Positions 14,047-50,981 of a stretch of 64,000 nucleotides of DNA are shown here, in pieces (within the stretch, counting starts at the first letter, position 1; every line of letters begins with the position of its first letter). The position numbers and the translations under genes were made by a program. Origin of the DNA: Escherichia phage ECO4; sequence record NC_054911.1; one strand, 5' to 3'. The notes beneath the pieces were generated by a model. The model saw nothing but the letters and a program-made list of their open reading frames with translations, searched no databases and was not told the origin of the DNA.

Positions 14047-15247
14047 ATTTTGTAATAATGTCAAACTGTTCTTTAAAGCAGAAGCTTGAATCTTGATGCT
14101 GATACAAAAATTCATATGCTTTTTCTCGCTCACGGTCATAAAGAGCTCGGTCAGATGACAGTTCTTTAATACGTTCAAACGTTGATTCCATATCATTTTC
14201 ATCAAACCAAATGATACCGCTATCATGCGAGGTCAAAGGAGTATTATCAACACGGAATTTTAAATTTTCGCCAGTAGATTTCCAAAATACCGGAATTGTT
14301 CCACATGCACCAAGCTCGAGATGAGTATATTCTAAAGAACGTTGTAGATATTTTTTATCCAACTTACTCAGCTGATAACCAAATCCGGATTTACTCATGC
14401 GTTCAAGCATTTCGCTATTTACATAACGGTCAAGAATTTGCGTTGGCAAATTAGGAGCAATTTTAATTTGGTCTACTTGATGAAGACGATAATACTCGTA
14501 TGGAATTCCTTTTTCTTTAATAGGAATGAACGCTGGAGAACGTTCCAGACCTTCCATAATAGTACTTAGTCCTGCAGGTTTAAGATGTTTTTCATGAAAA
14601 TCAAACATCTGATAAAAACCTTTCCATGTAGTCGTACGACCAATCCAACGGTTGATATTCATGTTAATTTCAGAAACATCTTTCCAGTAGGTTGATCTAA
14701 CCTTCGCAATATCCATAGGAGGCTGAAAGTTATATACTGTCGGTGCTTCTTCAATATCATCAAACAGAGAAACTGTTTCAGGATACCATTCTTTCATCAG
14801 AACTTTATTAAAATCACCATTATCAGAATGGCTAAAAATAACATCAGCTCGACGAACAGTTTCTTCTAATCCCAAATTTCGACGCAAAGAAAGAGAAGAA
14901 TGGTCATGTTGATAAACTACAACACGAACAGAAGGTTTAATGTTATCAATAATTTTTTTATAGTTATTAATAGTGTCTTCTTCAACCGAAGTAGCAGGAA
15001 CTGAATTAATAATTAGAATATCACAATCATTTACCAGCTTAAGTGTTTTATCATATTCTTTTGCCAATAAAACCGGAATTGAAAATGATTTATAATCATG
15101 CGCGCAATTACGAGTAAATGATTTATCTTTAGCATAAACCAAAGTTACTTCATGACCATTTTTAATAAACCAATCACGCTGCTCAAGAGAAAATTTAGTT
15201 ACACCGCAACCTTCAAGACCCCGAGCCAGAAAAATGCATACTTTCAT
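14045..15247 (-). CDS. a-gt: alpha-glucosyltransferase (HMC-DNA)
   Basis: 400 aa MKVCIFLARGLEGCGVTKFSLEQRDWFIKNGHEV..., matches recalled T4 alpha-gt. Confidence 0.93.
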   Translation of the reverse strand: MKVCIFLARGLEGCGVTKFSLEQRDWFIKNGHEVTLVYAKDKSFTRNCAHDYKSFSIPVLLAKEYDKTLKLVNDCDILIINSVPATSVEEDTINNYKKIIDNIKPSVRVVVYQHDHSSLSLRRNLGLEETVRRADVIFSHSDNGDFNKVLMKEWYPETVSLFDDIEEAPTVYNFQPPMDIAKVRSTYWKDVSEINMNINRWIGRTTTWKGFYQMFDFHEKHLKPAGLSTIMEGLERSPAFIPIKEKGIPYEYYRLHQVDQIKIAPNLPTQILDRYVNSEMLERMSKSGFGYQLSKLDKKYLQRSLEYTHLELGACGTIPVFWKSTGENLKFRVDNTPLTSHDSGIIWFDENDMESTFERIKELSSDRALYDREREKAYEFLYQHQDSSFCFKEQFDIITK

Positions 15248-18128: not shown

Positions 18129-18356
18129 TCACCACGTAATTGGCGGATTTAGCTCATCTTTAACTTCTGAATCAATACCTTTCATTCTACGCCATTTATC
18201 AGAGCGAAAAATGTTTTCAACCATATCTTTATGACTTACACCATCAGGAGCTTTACGCTTTCCGAAATAGTCATAATCACGCACTTTTAAGTCTTTACGA
18301 CGATACGTTTTACCCATGGAGTTTAATTTCCTTAGCAACTGAACTAAATACAGCAC
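18129..18356 (-). CDS. hypothetical protein
   Basis: 75 aa basic ORF. Confidence 0.45.
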   Translation of the reverse strand: MLYLVQLLRKLNSMGKTYRRKDLKVRDYDYFGKRKAPDGVSHKDMVENIFRSDKWRRMKGIDSEVKDELNPPITW

Positions 18357-33288: not shown

Positions 33289-33540
33289 TTATCCTTTCAT
33301 TGAAGGCGTAACGGTTGTTAAATACTTAATCATAGCTTCAGCTTCTGATTTTGACAATGAAATTTCTCCATTGTTTTGACGAATAGAAATAAAATCCGGA
33401 TGACGGTCACCACCAGCTTTTAAAACACACATATAAGTATCAGTTTCGCCTTCAATATTTGAAATGATTGAAGCAGTTCCACATGAATGCGGTTTTTGAT
33501 AAATCAATACAGCTTTTCTTCCGCCATTTGGACTGCTCAT
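33289..33540 (-). CDS. hypothetical protein
   Basis: 83 aa ORF; overlaps upstream ORF by 89 nt (possible frame break). Confidence 0.4.
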   Translation of the reverse strand: MSSPNGGRKAVLIYQKPHSCGTASIISNIEGETDTYMCVLKAGGDRHPDFISIRQNNGEISLSKSEAEAMIKYLTTVTPSMKG

Positions 33541-33811
33541 AGGCTTTTAATACATCAAACAAATCAGTTCTTTTATCAATAGCTAAAATGTTATTTTCAT
33601 CTTCAATGTTAAATCCTTCGGATACTTCATAAAGTGTCACCCATAAATCGCCAATATCAATAACAGCGTTCACTTTTCCATGACTTTCAAGAGCATGACA
33701 AATTTTCTTGATTTCGTCATAACTCATTTTAATAATATCATCTCCTTGAATAAGAAAGATGTCATTTTTAAATTCAACACGAATTAAACCACTTCCACTT
33801 GAAATAAACAT
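33452..33811 (-). CDS. hypothetical protein
   Basis: 119 aa, RBS GAGGAAA; C-terminal 25 aa look non-coding. Confidence 0.45.
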   Translation of the reverse strand: MFISSGSGLIRVEFKNDIFLIQGDDIIKMSYDEIKKICHALESHGKVNAVIDIGDLWVTLYEVSEGFNIEDENNILAIDKRTDLFDVLKAYEQSKWRKKSCIDLSKTAFMWNCFNHFKY

Positions 33812-42124: not shown

Positions 42125-42598
42125 TTATTTAAATGATTTGACGTACTGAACAGAACCTTTACTATTCACGAAAGCGATTTTACCATTTTTATTATACATG
42201 GTAGCAGTACGCTGATAGCCATAAGTTTGCTTACCAGATTGATAACCAACTAATGCAAAATTATCTTCACCCATTTTATTCTGTTTAGCGCGAATGCGTT
42301 CATGACCATGTGCCATAAGAACCTTAGCATCACCCGTTGCAATGGATCTACGAGTTTTTTCATCTTCAACTGTATTAACAAAATCATCAAATGAATCAAA
42401 TTTAGCATGAGATTTATTATACAGTTTTCCATCTACTGCATAATTATATCCTTGCACATCCATCTCAACTTCTGTACCATCATCCAATACAGCAGTGATT
42501 TTCTGTCCTTTTTTAAATTTCAAAAGATCAGTAAAAGATTCAGCAATAATTTGAGAATTAATAGCTGCTTCAGTGATAAATTCTTGATATGTTTTCAT
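42125..42598 (-). CDS. internal-protein-like head protein with capsid-targeting N-terminus
   Basis: N-terminus MKTYQEFITEA matches the capsid-targeting sequence of T4 internal proteins. Confidence 0.6.
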   Translation of the reverse strand: MKTYQEFITEAAINSQIIAESFTDLLKFKKGQKITAVLDDGTEVEMDVQGYNYAVDGKLYNKSHAKFDSFDDFVNTVEDEKTRRSIATGDAKVLMAHGHERIRAKQNKMGEDNFALVGYQSGKQTYGYQRTATMYNKNGKIAFVNSKGSVQYVKSFK

Positions 42599-47103: not shown

Positions 47104-47367
47104 TTATTTCATATTATTGAAATATTCTTCTGCAATTTCGTCGTTATCATGATAAACTTTAGAAGACAGTTTAACATAACCTTCAGCAGTGAACATGTTA
47201 ATCACAACCTTTACAGTATACCACTGACCATCTTCATTACCCATTACTGCGTAAGTTTCAAACATCGGATGATCAGGACCGATAACTTTAATATCATTCA
47301 CTGTACGACCAAAATCTTCTGAAACACATTTCATAAAGAAGTTGAACAGTTCGCCGTAATTATCCAT
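47104..47367 (-). CDS. hypothetical protein
   Basis: ATG 47367 with GGAG RBS downstream of early promoter; track start is TTG artefact. Confidence 0.5.
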   Translation of the reverse strand: MDNYGELFNFFMKCVSEDFGRTVNDIKVIGPDHPMFETYAVMGNEDGQWYTVKVVINMFTAEGYVKLSSKVYHDNDEIAEEYFNNMK

Positions 47368-47410
47368 TTCATTCTCCAAGTTGTTTTCTGTATCAGTAGT
47401 TGATAGTTGT

Positions 47411-47440
47411 ATAGTACCATGGAAGAACAGGGATGTAAAC
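47411..47440 (-). promoter_or_regulatory. early promoter, GTTTAC-18nt-TACTAT
   Basis: Upstream of ORF 47104-47367; about 70 bp near-identical to the 3841-3912 copy. Confidence 0.7.
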
Positions 47441-47573
47441 AGTTTTGTGAAAAATTTTTTAAAAAGTTTTGGGGAATTCTAGGGCAAGGAGGGGAAATCA
47501 AAGGATAGGATAATATATTATAAAGGGTAGAAACTAAATGATGCCTAGAGAGGCCTGGAAAGGCCTAGATACC

Positions 47574-47601
47574 AAAAAGCCCCAACCTTTTGGTCGGGGC
47601 T
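47574..47601 (-). terminator. intrinsic terminator (10-bp stem, GNRA loop, U5)
   Basis: AGCCCCGACC-AAAA-GGUUGGGGCU followed by UUUUU. Confidence 0.75.
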
Positions 47602-47608
47602 AAGAATG

Positions 47609-48084
47609 TTATTTGATTTGTTTAGCAGACCAAATGCGGTCTTTAATAATTTTTTGGATGTCTTCAACATACTCTAGGTCATGAGCATGTGGGTTATCTT
47701 TAAAGCTATGAGCACGAGCTAGCTTTTGGCCTTCAGTTTTGATTACTAAAAGCTCTTTAAGGATAGCTTCATATTTGGAGATAATTCCTTTAACGATATT
47801 TTTTTTTCTTGTGCGACTTTAGGATCTGCTTTAGGAGCAGGTTTACCCGAAGCCTTTGCAAAAGCAGCGCCAGTAGCAACTAAACTTTTCCAGGCCATAC
47901 TAACTGCATTTCCCGTAAATCCTTCCGCTTTCATGTCGCGTGCGAACTGAAATCGCGATTCATCAGAAGCATCTTTGTAAGAATATTTACCCGCTGCAAT
48001 GGCTGCTTTTGCGACAGCTTGAATTTCGGTGCTAGATGCTTCATTTAACACCGCTTCATTTAAAAATTGAGTATATGATTTCAT
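47609..48084 (-). CDS. internal-protein-like gene with capsid-targeting N-terminus, broken by a frameshift at an A9 tract
   Basis: N-terminus MKSYTQFLNEA; annotated frame stops at 47746 but a start-less protein-like frame continues to a stop at 47609 next to the terminator; frames meet at the T9/A9 run 47799-47807; late promoter TATAAATA upstream. Confidence 0.5.
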
Positions 48085-48120
48085 CTTATTTCCTGTTTTA
48101 ATTCGTGGATTTAATATACT

Positions 48121-48128
48121 TATTTATA
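48121..48128 (-). promoter_or_regulatory. late promoter TATAAATA for internal-protein-like gene
   Basis: Minus-strand TATAAATA immediately after terminator hairpin, 37 nt upstream of ATG 48084. Confidence 0.6.
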
Positions 48129-48130
48129 CT

Positions 48131-48158
48131 AAAAAGCCCCAACCTTTCGGTCGGGGCT
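48131..48158 (-). terminator. intrinsic terminator (10-bp stem, GAAA loop, U5); near-identical copy of the 47574 element
   Basis: AGCCCCGACC-GAAA-GGUUGGGGCU followed by UUUUU. Confidence 0.75.
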
Positions 48159-48465
48159 AAGCCTTGCGGCAACCTTGTCGGGGTTCCACCTGCTAAGGCA
48201 AGTGTTTGTACGAAACGCCGGGATTCGAACCCGGTTATCAAGCAGTTGACGCTACTCAATATTTTTAAAAGGCCATATCTCGACCATATCCGAACGTTCC
48301 GTCAAAAACGCTACTCGGTTTACGGCAAAGATATTTCCTCGAATCGATAATTCGGTGCGCCGTTTCTGCTGTGATAGTAAAGAGCCAGAACACAGTAAAA
48401 CTGTGGGAGGAAACTATACTCCAGGGAACATCAGTCCGACGACTTACCGGTAGCGACCCGGTTTC
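48159..48465 (-). ncRNA. candidate small stable RNA(s) downstream of tRNA cluster (T4 RNA C/D-like position)
   Basis: No ORF; contains tRNA-like T-arm GGGTTCGAATCCCGG and stem-forming segments; ends at a strong terminator hairpin. Confidence 0.35.
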
Positions 48466-48816
48466 TTAGTATTCTTTTAAAGCATCAACCTGTTCACGAC
48501 GTTTACGCCATAAATCAATTACTTCATACGCAGATTCAGCATTTCGAATTGGACGGCATTTATATAAAGACTTGTGATTTTGATATTGTGTAGATAACGG
48601 AATTTTATCTAAAAGGTCTTTACGTTCAAAATATTCGTAACCATCTAAACCAAATGAACGATTTTTGAGAAATTGCCAATGACCAAATTCGTTTTCGACA
48701 TAAACATAATCTGCGTGTTGATAAAGCAAATTAGTTTCACGAGATGAGATATGGTTTTCATATTCATTGAAGTAAAATGTTAAATCATGAACTACTAAGT
48801 AAACATTACCTTTCAT
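48466..48816 (-). CDS. hypothetical protein
   Basis: 116 aa, strong RBS GAGGAAAATATG, immediately downstream of tRNA-Arg. Confidence 0.55.
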   Translation of the reverse strand: MKGNVYLVVHDLTFYFNEYENHISSRETNLLYQHADYVYVENEFGHWQFLKNRSFGLDGYEYFERKDLLDKIPLSTQYQNHKSLYKCRPIRNAESAYEVIDLWRKRREQVDALKEY

Positions 48817-48834
48817 ATTTTCCTCACTTATAAT

Positions 48835-48910
48835 TGGTCGAGGCAGTAGGGATCGAACCTACGACCCAGGACTTAGAAGGTCCTTGCTCTTCCTTCTGAG
48901 CTATGCCTCG
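48835..48910 (-). tRNA. tRNA-Arg (anticodon UCU), CCA encoded
   Basis: Manual cloverleaf: acceptor CGAGGCA/TGCCTCG, anticodon loop CTTCTAA, T-loop TTCGATC. Confidence 0.8.
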
Positions 48911-48914
48911 TATT

Positions 48915-48989
48915 TGGCGGACGTGATAGGATTCGAACCTATAACCAATCACTTAACAGGCGATCGCTCTGCCATTGAGCTACACATCC
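48915..48989 (-). tRNA. tRNA-Asn (anticodon GUU), CCA encoded
   Basis: Manual cloverleaf: acceptor GGATGTG/CACGTCC, D-stem GCTC/GAGC, anticodon loop CTGTTAA, T-loop TTCGAAT. Confidence 0.75.
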
Positions 48990-48993
48990 AAAT

Positions 48994-49080
48994 TGGTGGG
49001 GAGTGATGGAGTCGAACCACCCGAGTCGCAATGACAATGGATTTACAGTCCACACCGCTACCTCTACGGGATAACTCCCC
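48994..49080 (-). tRNA. tRNA-Tyr (anticodon GUA), class II with long variable arm, CCA encoded
   Basis: Manual fold: acceptor GGGGAGT/ACTCCCC, anticodon loop CTGTAAA, long variable arm, T-loop TTCGACT. Confidence 0.7.
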
Positions 49081-49089
49081 AAATTAATT

Positions 49090-49164
49090 TGGTGGCCCTG
49101 GGTGGAATTGAACCACCATCTGGCGATTATGAGTCGCTTGCTTGAACCTTCCAGCTACAGGGCC
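49090..49164 (-). tRNA. tRNA with CAU anticodon (Ile2 or Met), CCA encoded
   Basis: Acceptor GGCCCTG/CAGGGCC, anticodon loop CTCATAA, T-loop TTCAATT; position of tRNA-Ile in T4. Confidence 0.75.
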
Positions 49165-49165
49165 T

Positions 49166-49241
49166 TGGTGCTGATTGACGGAATCGAACCGCCGACCTTC
49201 TCATTACAAGTGAGTTGCTCTACCTACTGAGCTAAATCAGC
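49166..49241 (-). tRNA. tRNA-Thr (anticodon UGU), CCA encoded
   Basis: Acceptor GCTGATT/AATCAGC, anticodon loop CTTGTAA, T-loop TTCGATT. Confidence 0.8.
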
Positions 49242-49246
49242 AAAAC

Positions 49247-49336
49247 TGGCGGAGGCGATAGGATTTGAACCTATGAGTCGCCGGAGCGACTGCCGGTTTT
49301 CAAGACCGGTGCATTAAACCACTCTGCCACGCCTCC
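49247..49336 (-). tRNA. tRNA-Ser (anticodon UGA), class II
   Basis: Acceptor GGAGGCG/CGCCTCC, anticodon stem CCGGT/ACCGG with loop CTTGAAA, long variable arm. Confidence 0.8.
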
Positions 49337-49338
49337 AG

Positions 49339-49412
49339 TCTCCGCGGCAGGATTTGAACCTACGACATTCTGCTCCCAAAGCAGACGCTCTACCAAACTG
49401 AGCTACACGGAG
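49339..49412 (-). tRNA. tRNA-Pro (anticodon UGG), CCA not encoded
   Basis: Acceptor CTCCGTG/CGCGGAG (C1-G72), anticodon loop TTTGGGA, T-loop TTCAAAT. Confidence 0.8.
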
Positions 49413-49422
49413 TAAATTAAAT

Positions 49423-49496
<74 letters not shown>

Positions 49497-49501
49497 AAAT
49501 T

Positions 49502-49588
49502 TGGTGCGAGAAGTGGGACTCGAACCCACAAGGAAATCATTCCGCAGCATTTTAAGTGCTGTGCCTTTACCAATTTGACCATTCTCGC
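49502..49588 (-). tRNA. tRNA-Leu (anticodon UAA), class II, CCA encoded
   Basis: Acceptor GCGAGAA/TTCTCGC, anticodon stem CAGCA/TGCTG loop CTTAAAA, long variable arm. Confidence 0.8.
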
Positions 49589-49589
49589 G

Positions 49590-49662
49590 CTGGGAATAAA
49601 GGACTCGAACCTTTGCATCCTGGAATCAAAATCCAGTGCCTTACCAACTTGGCTAATTCCCA
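49590..49662 (-). tRNA. tRNA-Gln (anticodon UUG), CCA not encoded
   Basis: Acceptor TGGGAAT/ATTCCCA, anticodon stem CTGGA/TCCAG loop TTTTGAT, T-loop TTCGAGT. Confidence 0.8.
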
Positions 49663-49759
49663 ATTATTAACAAAGGCTCTCTAACAAGAACCCTTGATGA
49701 TAGAGGGTATTAATCAGTGCGGTATGAGTTAATAATAACAAATAATTCTTAAAGCATAT

Positions 49760-50053
49760 TTACCATTTATGATAATACATATTTACGATGCATTCAAGAC
49801 CCAAAGGATTCTTGAAAATATCATATTCAAGAGGACCTTTTTCTGTTTCAATAAAGAAATCAAAATTTACTGTATTAAATTTACGGTCTTCCTTCACTAA
49901 TTTAACTTGTGAAGATGAACGGTCAATGTAAACCTTTTCAACTTCAAAATATGTTAAAATGCCATAATCATCAATCAAGGCTTTAGCCGCGTCTTGATCA
50001 TATTTATATCCATTTTCAATGGATGATACTTTCGCATAAAGAATCATTATCAA
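49760..50053 (-). CDS. hypothetical protein
   Basis: 97 aa ORF between tRNA array and ipI. Confidence 0.5.
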   Translation of the reverse strand: MIMILYAKVSSIENGYKYDQDAAKALIDDYGILTYFEVEKVYIDRSSSQVKLVKEDRKFNTVNFDFFIETEKGPLEYDIFKNPLGLECIVNMYYHKW

Positions 50054-50696: not shown

Positions 50697-50981
50697 TTAC
50701 AAAAGATTTTTAGCAATAATTTTAAGCTGAGCTACTGAAATATGCTTGGCTTTAAACAAAGCAGTTTCTTCAGCAGGTGAGATAACGATTGTAGCACCAT
50801 CTTTCTTAGCGGACCATCCATCACCCAGGTAAACAGTACCTTTGACTTCTTCGCCATCAACCAGGCTAATCATCGGTTTACCTTCACGTCCTTTGTTTGC
50901 TTTAATAACTTCAGAAGTAAGGGTCGCTTCAGTCAAAGTAGAAGCGTTAGTCGTTGAAGTGAATTCTTGATAAGTTTTCAT
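50697..50981 (-). CDS. ipI: internal protein I-like (capsid-targeted, DNA-co-injected protein)
   Basis: N-terminus MKTYQEF capsid-targeting sequence; position immediately before 57B as in T4; early promoter upstream. Confidence 0.7.
   Translation of the reverse strand: MKTYQEFTSTTNASTLTEATLTSEVIKANKGREGKPMISLVDGEEVKGTVYLGDGWSAKKDGATIVISPAEETALFKAKHISVAQLKIIAKNLL

Follow-up and report, generated by a model that had tools for sequence, protein, structure and literature searches.

In Escherichia coli dnaX, a -1 programmed ribosomal frameshift occurs at A_AAA_AAG, and it is the shift that yields the short product. Nine A's on the sense strand join two frames in Thermus thermophilus dnaX, in Shigella mxiE and in IS elements (PMC1088944); in these transcriptional slippage systems (dnaX, mxiE, IS), the long product requires that one A be added to the mRNA. 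With the A9 run of Thermus dnaX, slipped product amounts to about 50% (PMC1088944). For E. coli RNA polymerase, no slippage or rescue is detectable below seven T's or eight A's, while T7/T8 runs allow 5-10% rescue (PMC6260861). Slippage can also rescue an interrupted gene, as in Citrobacter rodentium tssM (PMC4256274). Work on T2 and T4 demonstrates that homopolymers of at least six nucleotides undergo elevated, reversible frameshifting and behave as 'contingency loci'. The loci described in T2, T4 and T6 consist of poly(A) runs within agt and rIIA, which revert up to 10^3-10^4-fold more often than point mutants do (bioRxiv 10.1101/2025.10.21.683753).

Here we analyzed a 64-kb segment of the Tequatrovirus (T4-like) ECO4 phage, with 35% G+C, which we call the window. 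It carries an A9 run in a gene located between the e.8 (or e.8-like) gene and the tRNA cluster at 48835-49662. The first-pass annotation had described this gene as capsid-targeted and internal-protein-like, and split by a frame change at nine A's. According to our analysis, this layout is correct. The ORF starts at ATG 48084 on the minus strand with MKSYTQFLNEA, a capsid-targeting-like N-terminus, and the TATAAATA late promoter proposed upstream of it is present at 48128-48121. The frame ends at 47746 as annotated, giving a 112-aa zero-frame product, and the two frames do meet at A9 (47799-47807) in the minus-strand sequence. The strong terminator expected right after the stop at 47609 corresponds to a hairpin and T-run at 47601-47578. 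The parts of the locus, in the order in which they are transcribed, are as follows.

48135-48158, minus strand: upstream terminator-like hairpin, G+C-rich with a T-run, from the terminator scan; copy 1 of the direct repeat.
48121-48128, minus strand: T4-type late promoter motif TATAAATA, read in the sequence, directly after hairpin 1.
48091-48094, minus strand: Shine-Dalgarno-like AGGA, read in the sequence, 6 nt ahead of the ATG.
47746-48084, minus strand: zero-frame ORF of 112 aa (ATG 48084-48082; stop at 47746 included), made up of a capsid-targeting-like leader (MKSYTQFLNE/A, VLNE/A; the slash marks the putative cut), an N-terminal helical domain, a Lys/Pro/Ala linker and an out-of-frame tail.
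47799-47807, minus strand: A9 homopolymer (T9 on the plus strand), +2 relative to the in-frame A7 of the family.
47609-47806, minus strand: -1 frame continuation, corresponding to the conserved C-terminal helical hairpin (residues about 95-157 of 157); TAA at 47611-47609.
47578-47601, minus strand: downstream intrinsic-terminator-like hairpin and T-run, from the terminator scan, with a 10-bp G+C-rich stem; copy 2 of the direct repeat.

The two flanking hairpins are nearly identical. The site equivalent to TATAAATA is labeled 'predicted late promoter' in the fPS-65 record, and an RBS is annotated in the phage 107 record at the position matching AGGA. On the minus strand, the zero-frame ORF begins with MKSYTQFLNEAVLNEASS and finishes with an out-of-frame tail of 17 aa, ISLKELSPNMKLSLKSF. 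From the A9 run, the -1 frame is open for 65 codons (KKNIVKGIISKYEAIL...IWSAKQIK) up to the TAA at 47611-47609, and reads KKNIVKGIISKYEAILKELLVIKTEGQKLARAHSFKDNPHAHDLEYVEDIQKIIKDRIWSAKQIK before this stop. The downstream frame is thus open and protein-like, as had been reported, with a length of about 63 sense codons past the shift point rather than 62. The family C-terminus, through ...QEKKNIVKG..., would be restored by an additional A (A10) or by a ribosomal slip of -1.

A 701-nt probe from the locus matched 592 phage records. About 500 GenBank relatives carry the gene, and those that we read have a single 157-aa ORF with A7 or GAGAAAAA. In the annotations of BECP11, phage 107, KMB40 and RB51, the locus is a single CDS of 474 nt (157 aa), named RB32ORF132c in the RB51 record; in ECML-363 it is called RB32ORF133c-like. 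The closest relative is BECP11 (99.7% over the 701-nt query). Over the 571 aligned nt at 47560-48130, the sole difference between BECP11 and the window is that two A's are missing in BECP11. As the window differs only by these two extra A's, its downstream frame is the true C-terminal half of the family protein. The comparison with orthologues, which had been proposed as a check, gives the same picture: in the relatives, the downstream frame forms the C-terminal half of a conserved 157-aa protein. The profile of PHROG 2280 (function unknown) is covered end to end by the 157-aa form (E = 4e-60), and the 112-aa product of the window reaches positions 1-101 only. These data identify the gene as an orthologue of a conserved T-even accessory protein of 157 aa (RB32ORF133c/RB51ORF140 type, PHROG 2280), and the locus reads as one gene, not two. 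In Pfam, no family was found at the curated cut-off (two matches reached about 13 bits for cut-offs of 26-27), literature look-ups of RB32ORF133c, RB32ORF132c and RB51ORF140 gave no match, and an exact look-up of the 112-aa product in a large gene-position index returned no record.

The AF2 model of a 96%-identical homologue, obtained from a 7-sequence alignment and of medium confidence (pLDDT 73.5), is all-helical. It presents N-domain helices at residues 19-78, a disordered Lys/Pro/Ala linker at 80-87 and a C-terminal helical hairpin at 88-154. The poly-A tract occupies codons 93-95, just past the linker and at the start of the C-terminal helices. The N-domain is also found in proteins of 177-178 aa from Klebsiella phage KP01 and Yersinia phage fHe-Yen9-01, in which the C-terminal region is different. 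The family can therefore be described as two modules, of which the N-domain is common to Klebsiella and Yersinia phage proteins with another C-terminal region. Foldseek searches against the PDB and BFVD gave nothing significant except the family's own member from OE5505. Given the medium confidence of the model (pLDDT 73.5), assigning a function from the fold was abandoned.

The capsid-targeting sequence of T4 comprises about 10 N-terminal residues, and the prohead protease cuts after L/I-x-E and before A. By inspection only, the N-terminal leader MKSYTQFLNE/A and a second site, VLNE/A, are similar to such a sequence. The N-terminal leader also resembles the MKTYQEF..E/A of the two other ip-like genes of the window, at 50981 and 42598. 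Both of these genes are intact: the Ip4-like gene (42125-42598, minus strand) encodes 157 aa with the leader MKTYQEFITE/A, and the gene at the IPI position (50697-50981, minus strand) encodes 94 aa with the leader MKTYQEFTST...LTE/A.

With IPI/IPII/IPIII and the T-even 'Ip' cassettes, the gene shares a late promoter, the character of a small non-essential gene and a location in the hyperplastic e-tRNA-ipI region. Like the T-even 'Ip' cassettes, it is a presence/absence cassette with bounding repeats (Repoila et al. 1994, cited in PMC12373910, for the wider T-even 'Ip' cassette genes). It differs from the characterized Ips in having no sequence or fold similarity to any of them, and no homology to IPI*, IPII or IPIII was found by Pfam, PHROG 2280 or fold searches. 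The Ips are not known to form one homologous family, so this absence of homology is compatible with an assignment of the gene to the Ip class. By its leader, promoter and position, the gene looks like an Ip cassette that is not homologous to a characterized Ip. Because of the capsid-targeting-like leader and the late promoter, the product is most likely a head-packaged, injected protein. It would be trimmed by the prohead protease gp21, packaged in the head and injected. T4 Ip1, Ip2 and Ip3 are each a specific inhibitor of GmrSD-type restriction enzymes (PMC12373910).

An imperfect direct repeat of about 34-36 nt, which reads TTAGCCCCGACCGAAAGGTTGGGGCTTTTT in the repeat alignment, accounts for the two flanking hairpins; its copies are at 48135-48165 and 47578-47608 in the window. 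The RB51 record carries the remark 'flanked by 34 bp imperfect direct repeat'. A terminator repeat opens the cassette, the late promoter and the gene come next, and the second terminator repeat closes it. In T2 and T6 the whole cassette is missing: a single repeat copy is present instead, and the breakpoints coincide exactly with it. The gene is therefore a presence/absence cassette, and this polymorphism presumably arose by recombination between the repeats. Cassettes of this kind have been described for the hyperplastic regions of T-even phages (PMC4122927).

The gene and the ORF at 48466-48816 are separated by a spacer of about 380 nt (48098-48465, minus strand) which has no convincing ORF and carries hairpin 1 at its end. 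It contains a tRNA T-arm-like GGTTCGAATCCCGG at about 48230-48217, and the phage 107 annotation places there, on the opposite strand, an 81-aa 'transmembrane protein'. A search of 47300-49800 with Rfam at the gathering threshold detected ten tRNAs only, none of them in this spacer, which may be a tRNA remnant or the counterpart of the small stable RNAs that come after the T4 tRNA cluster. The cluster at 48835-49662 holds ten tRNAs. tRNA-His and a spacer of about 115 nt between tRNA-Asn and tRNA-Arg are absent in the window, RB51 and T2, and present in BECP11, KMB40, phage 107 and fPS-65.

We then compared the length of the tract across the relatives. A7 was found in BECP11, phage 107, KMB40, ECML-363, OE5505 and three IMG/VR contigs. 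In RB51 the run is interrupted by a synonymous G (GAGAAAAA), and 41 records have the exact RB51 type. All the A7 and RB51-type records examined have the 474-nt ORF, except OE5505, which carries a separate T insertion. The ancestral in-frame state is A7 or the interrupted GAGAAAAA. An 81-nt probe centered on the run matched 196 records, none of which has A9 in these flanks. Among the matches listed, the spans are mostly of 79 nt (A7 or equivalent) and two are of 78 nt. These two, SfPhi01 and 235Ecol030PP, carry A6 on the window's own haplotype, and the A6 of SfPhi01 is reproduced in the Logan re-assembly of run DRR175055. A6 is also present in F26, and the protein database contains further A6-type truncations in other backgrounds (P0014, P0018, P0021 and P0023). 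A8 was found in bov10K1, in FJ1 and in a 174-kb megahit contig of ERZ27280638 (an Illumina metagenome); bov9_1, a near-twin of bov10K1, has a span one base shorter with the same probe. In Pu-Krd-SF4, a C has been added right after A7 (L025 437-446).

When the 112-aa product was compared with 510 records by tblastn, the only contiguous matches among those listed were SfPhi01, 235Ecol030PP and F26 (333 nt) and fPS-65 (336 nt), and OE5505 matched in three pieces. Beyond the window, A9 is present in one other record of the 510 (2 accessions) among the matches listed, that of Yersinia phage fPS-65. Its haplotype is not that of the window: SNPs separate the two 8-10 nt upstream of the run and 20 nt downstream, and there are about 25 over the whole gene. 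OE5505, the sister of fPS-65, has A7 and an unrelated T insertion early in the gene, GGTAAA(T)TATTCC (L013 ~700-710). Illumina MiSeq reads with >200x coverage underlie the fPS-65 assembly (PMC7917993), so A9 can be a true genotype. In IMG/VR, an exact search with a 31-mer containing A9 gave no match; a conserved 26-mer of the gene occurs there in three contigs only, all A7, which is too few Tequatroviruses for allele frequencies.

The tract is thus found as A6, A7, A8 and A9 on at least four local haplotypes, and about 2% of the deposited genomes are out of frame at this position. All the frameshifted alleles that we read are on uninterrupted-run backgrounds. The A6 and A8 alleles of other isolates mark the tract as a likely mutational hotspot. 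Each of these two lengths occurs in more genomes than A9, which is what slippage in single steps would give at a hotspot within a dispensable gene. The gene itself seems to have been disrupted repeatedly in the deposited genomes, the lesions of OE5505 and Pu-Krd-SF4 being independent.

Long homopolymers are scarce in the window. A9 is its sole A/T run of at least nine nucleotides, for 12.2 +/- 4.5 expected from dinucleotide-preserving shuffles, which makes such runs about 12-fold rarer than in the shuffles. The counts of A/T runs are 349 for a length of five, 65 for six, 3 for seven, 0 for eight and 1 for nine. The three runs of seven are at 14953, 29218 and 54368. Such a distribution points to strong selection in the ECO4 phage against runs of seven nucleotides or longer. 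As the shuffles predict about 12 runs of nine or more and one is seen, A9 is not a chance product of AT-richness. In many bacteria, selection against A/T runs is evident from about nine nucleotides (PMC1088944).

On balance, we lean toward A9 being a genuine and recent +2 replication-slippage allele at a hypermutable tract. The poly(A) tract past the linker would have expanded from the in-frame A7 to A9, most likely by DNA-polymerase slippage at this homopolymer, and the same process would be behind the A6, A8 and A9 found elsewhere. The absence of further substitutions in the downstream frame indicates that the change is recent. The outcome would be an 'off' or truncated allele, whose 112-aa product has the leader and the N-domain and is devoid of the C-terminal helical hairpin. 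Some full-length protein, a minority of the total, is probably still produced when RNA polymerase or the ribosome slips, since A9 is at the onset length of E. coli RNA polymerase slippage and A_AAA_AAA is slippery. In support of a genuine allele, the window has 12 private non-3n indels, mostly intergenic, for 6-10 in three relatives. Three points speak against it: a +2 step is rarer than a +/-1 step for a single slippage event, the exact 112-aa product and the A9 31-mer gave no match in the gene-position index and in IMG/VR, respectively, and the two further private insertions that break otherwise conserved genes in the window could point to an error-prone assembly. The first-pass annotation had left three causes side by side, a sequencing error, an inactivating mutation and slippage. 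The first two still stand. Functional slippage as a programmed feature is unsupported, because the ancestral A7 (or GAGAAAAA) is in frame, A9 occurs in 1 other of about 500 records and there are no stimulators.

A sequencing or assembly artefact is the less probable but still substantial possibility: the consensus would have over-called the homopolymer, and the phage would really have A7 (or A10) and an intact gene of 157/158 aa. The difference from BECP11 is indeed confined to the homopolymer, the downstream frame shows no decay, and A9 is private on the haplotype of the window, with no GenBank record having these flanks and A9. Moreover, two other private +1 insertions, each doubling the adjacent base, break conserved genes, and isolated private single-base indels are somewhat more numerous in the window than in the three relatives. 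However, A9 is present in fPS-65, an Illumina genome at >200x, and A8 and A6 occur in Illumina-type assemblies, which documents real length variation at the tract. Of the 69 A/T runs of at least six nucleotides, only two have a length change private to the window (the tract itself and an intergenic A-run at about 3908), unlike what a homopolymer-error-prone platform would give, and +2 is an unusual size for an error. The broader idea that the window is a generally error-ridden assembly is weakly disfavored by the counts of private indels; the two gene-breaking insertions keep some doubt.

These two insertions were characterized as follows. The one at about 18145, in a minus-strand ORF (18129-18356), changes GGCGA to GGCGGA on the plus strand and cuts a gp55.5-like ORF to 75 aa, compared to 112 aa in KMB40. 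It is shared by none of the 491 matching phage records, the best match being 80/81 with an 80-nt span. The one at about 33530 (33289-33811, minus strand) changes TTTGAC to TTTGGAC on the plus strand and is shared by none of the 304 matching records. It splits an RB32ORF097c-like gene, of 173 aa in KMB40, ECML-363 and phage 107, into overlapping ORFs of 119 aa and 83 aa.

If A9 is a genuine slippage allele, one sub-case is that the tract is an adaptive contingency switch. It would be kept for on/off bet-hedging against host defenses, the window representing an 'off' or N-domain-only phase. The closest mechanistic precedent is that of T2 agt and T4 rIIA (Gomez, Barrick, Waters): here too a homopolymer of at least six nucleotides lies in a dispensable T-even gene and has +/- frameshift alleles attributed to polymerase slippage. 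The evidence differs in being comparative across isolates rather than within populations. As T2 and T6 lack the gene at this position, the locus is outside those measured in the T2/T4/T6 study. A simple sequence repeat of at least six units inside a gene, with several length alleles among close relatives, is what we found (A6, A7, A8 and A9). The tract may thus be described as a further locus of the known contingency kind, documented by between-isolate comparison only. That it is adaptive is a stronger claim. In its favor are the length states, at least four over several haplotypes, the T-even homopolymers in agt and rIIA which act as reversible contingency loci, and the fact that even A7 is unusual in this genome. 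The inhibition of GmrSD-type enzymes by T4 Ip1, Ip2 and Ip3 offers a plausible trade-off setting (PMC12373910). Nevertheless, the run is interrupted by a synonymous G in many relatives (41 exact RB51-type records), so that the tract is not universally kept, the out-of-frame share is only about 2% of the records, and the data are accounted for equally well if a dispensable gene is decaying neutrally. We therefore regard the adaptive switch as quite unlikely.

The last alternative is that A9 is a selected shift site, for transcriptional slippage or -1 ribosomal frameshifting, which sets a fixed ratio of the 112-aa to the 158-aa product. Nine A's are a slippage-prone length (PMC1088944; PMC6260861) and agree with the figure of about nine or more given for A/T runs (PMC1088944). 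In the zero frame, the A_AAA_AAA of GA A_AAA_AAA TA fits X_XXY_YYZ. In the structural model, the shift site falls just past the disordered linker (80-87), where the C-terminal helices are predicted to start, and A9 is found on two different haplotypes. As in E. coli dnaX, a Lys-Lys slippery heptamer is in the zero frame and the -1 frame gives an alternative C-terminus, but here no SD-like element, no nearby 3' stem-loop and no conservation are found, and the effect is opposite, the shift yielding the short product in dnaX. Concerning transcriptional slippage, the long product would also need one extra A in the mRNA; the described systems, though, have a run and a two-frame layout that are either conserved or demonstrably functional, whereas here we have a rare allele of a single-frame gene. 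Almost all the relatives examined have one continuous frame across A7 or an interrupted run, so neither the shift site nor the two-frame layout is conserved, and the A6 and A8 alleles, which could not work in this way, are at least as frequent as A9. A 3' stimulatory structure is missing: the first 25 nt or so past the run hold a 3-bp hairpin only, and the 89-nt region 3' of the run folds with a z of -1.8, 10 of 200 shuffles being as good. No SD-like (GGAGG-like) element was found upstream. With no frameshift stimulators and no conservation of A9, programmed recoding is unsupported and highly improbable, and a dnaX-like programmed site was rejected on the same grounds.

Returning to the slippage allele, the tract acts like a hypermutable simple sequence repeat, and the gene is outside the programmed-frameshift families. 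For annotation, a single disrupted gene (a pseudogene or 'frameshifted' allele) should be recorded in place of the two ORFs, and neither a short novel protein with an orphan ORF nor a recoding site. We see the finding mainly as a flag for annotation and sequence quality; the chance that it reveals a natural on/off/dimmer switch in an injected protein is small. In its most specific form, which we consider unlikely, the tract would be a contingency locus toggling a head-packaged, injected (anti-defense?) protein between two-domain and N-domain-only forms, with A9 as a 'dimmer' through slippage and A6/A8 as 'off'. If true, this could account for the recurrence of +2 alleles on independent haplotypes.

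The A6/A7/A8/A9 series in independent Tequatrovirus isolates provides field-level comparative support for T-even homopolymers as hypermutable switches, and makes a family of apparently capsid-targeted proteins a candidate for on/off variation. If the family does not act as an anti-defense effector, the case would be an ordinary homopolymer frameshift; if it does so, like Ip1-3, the tract would be a handy natural test of bet-hedging.
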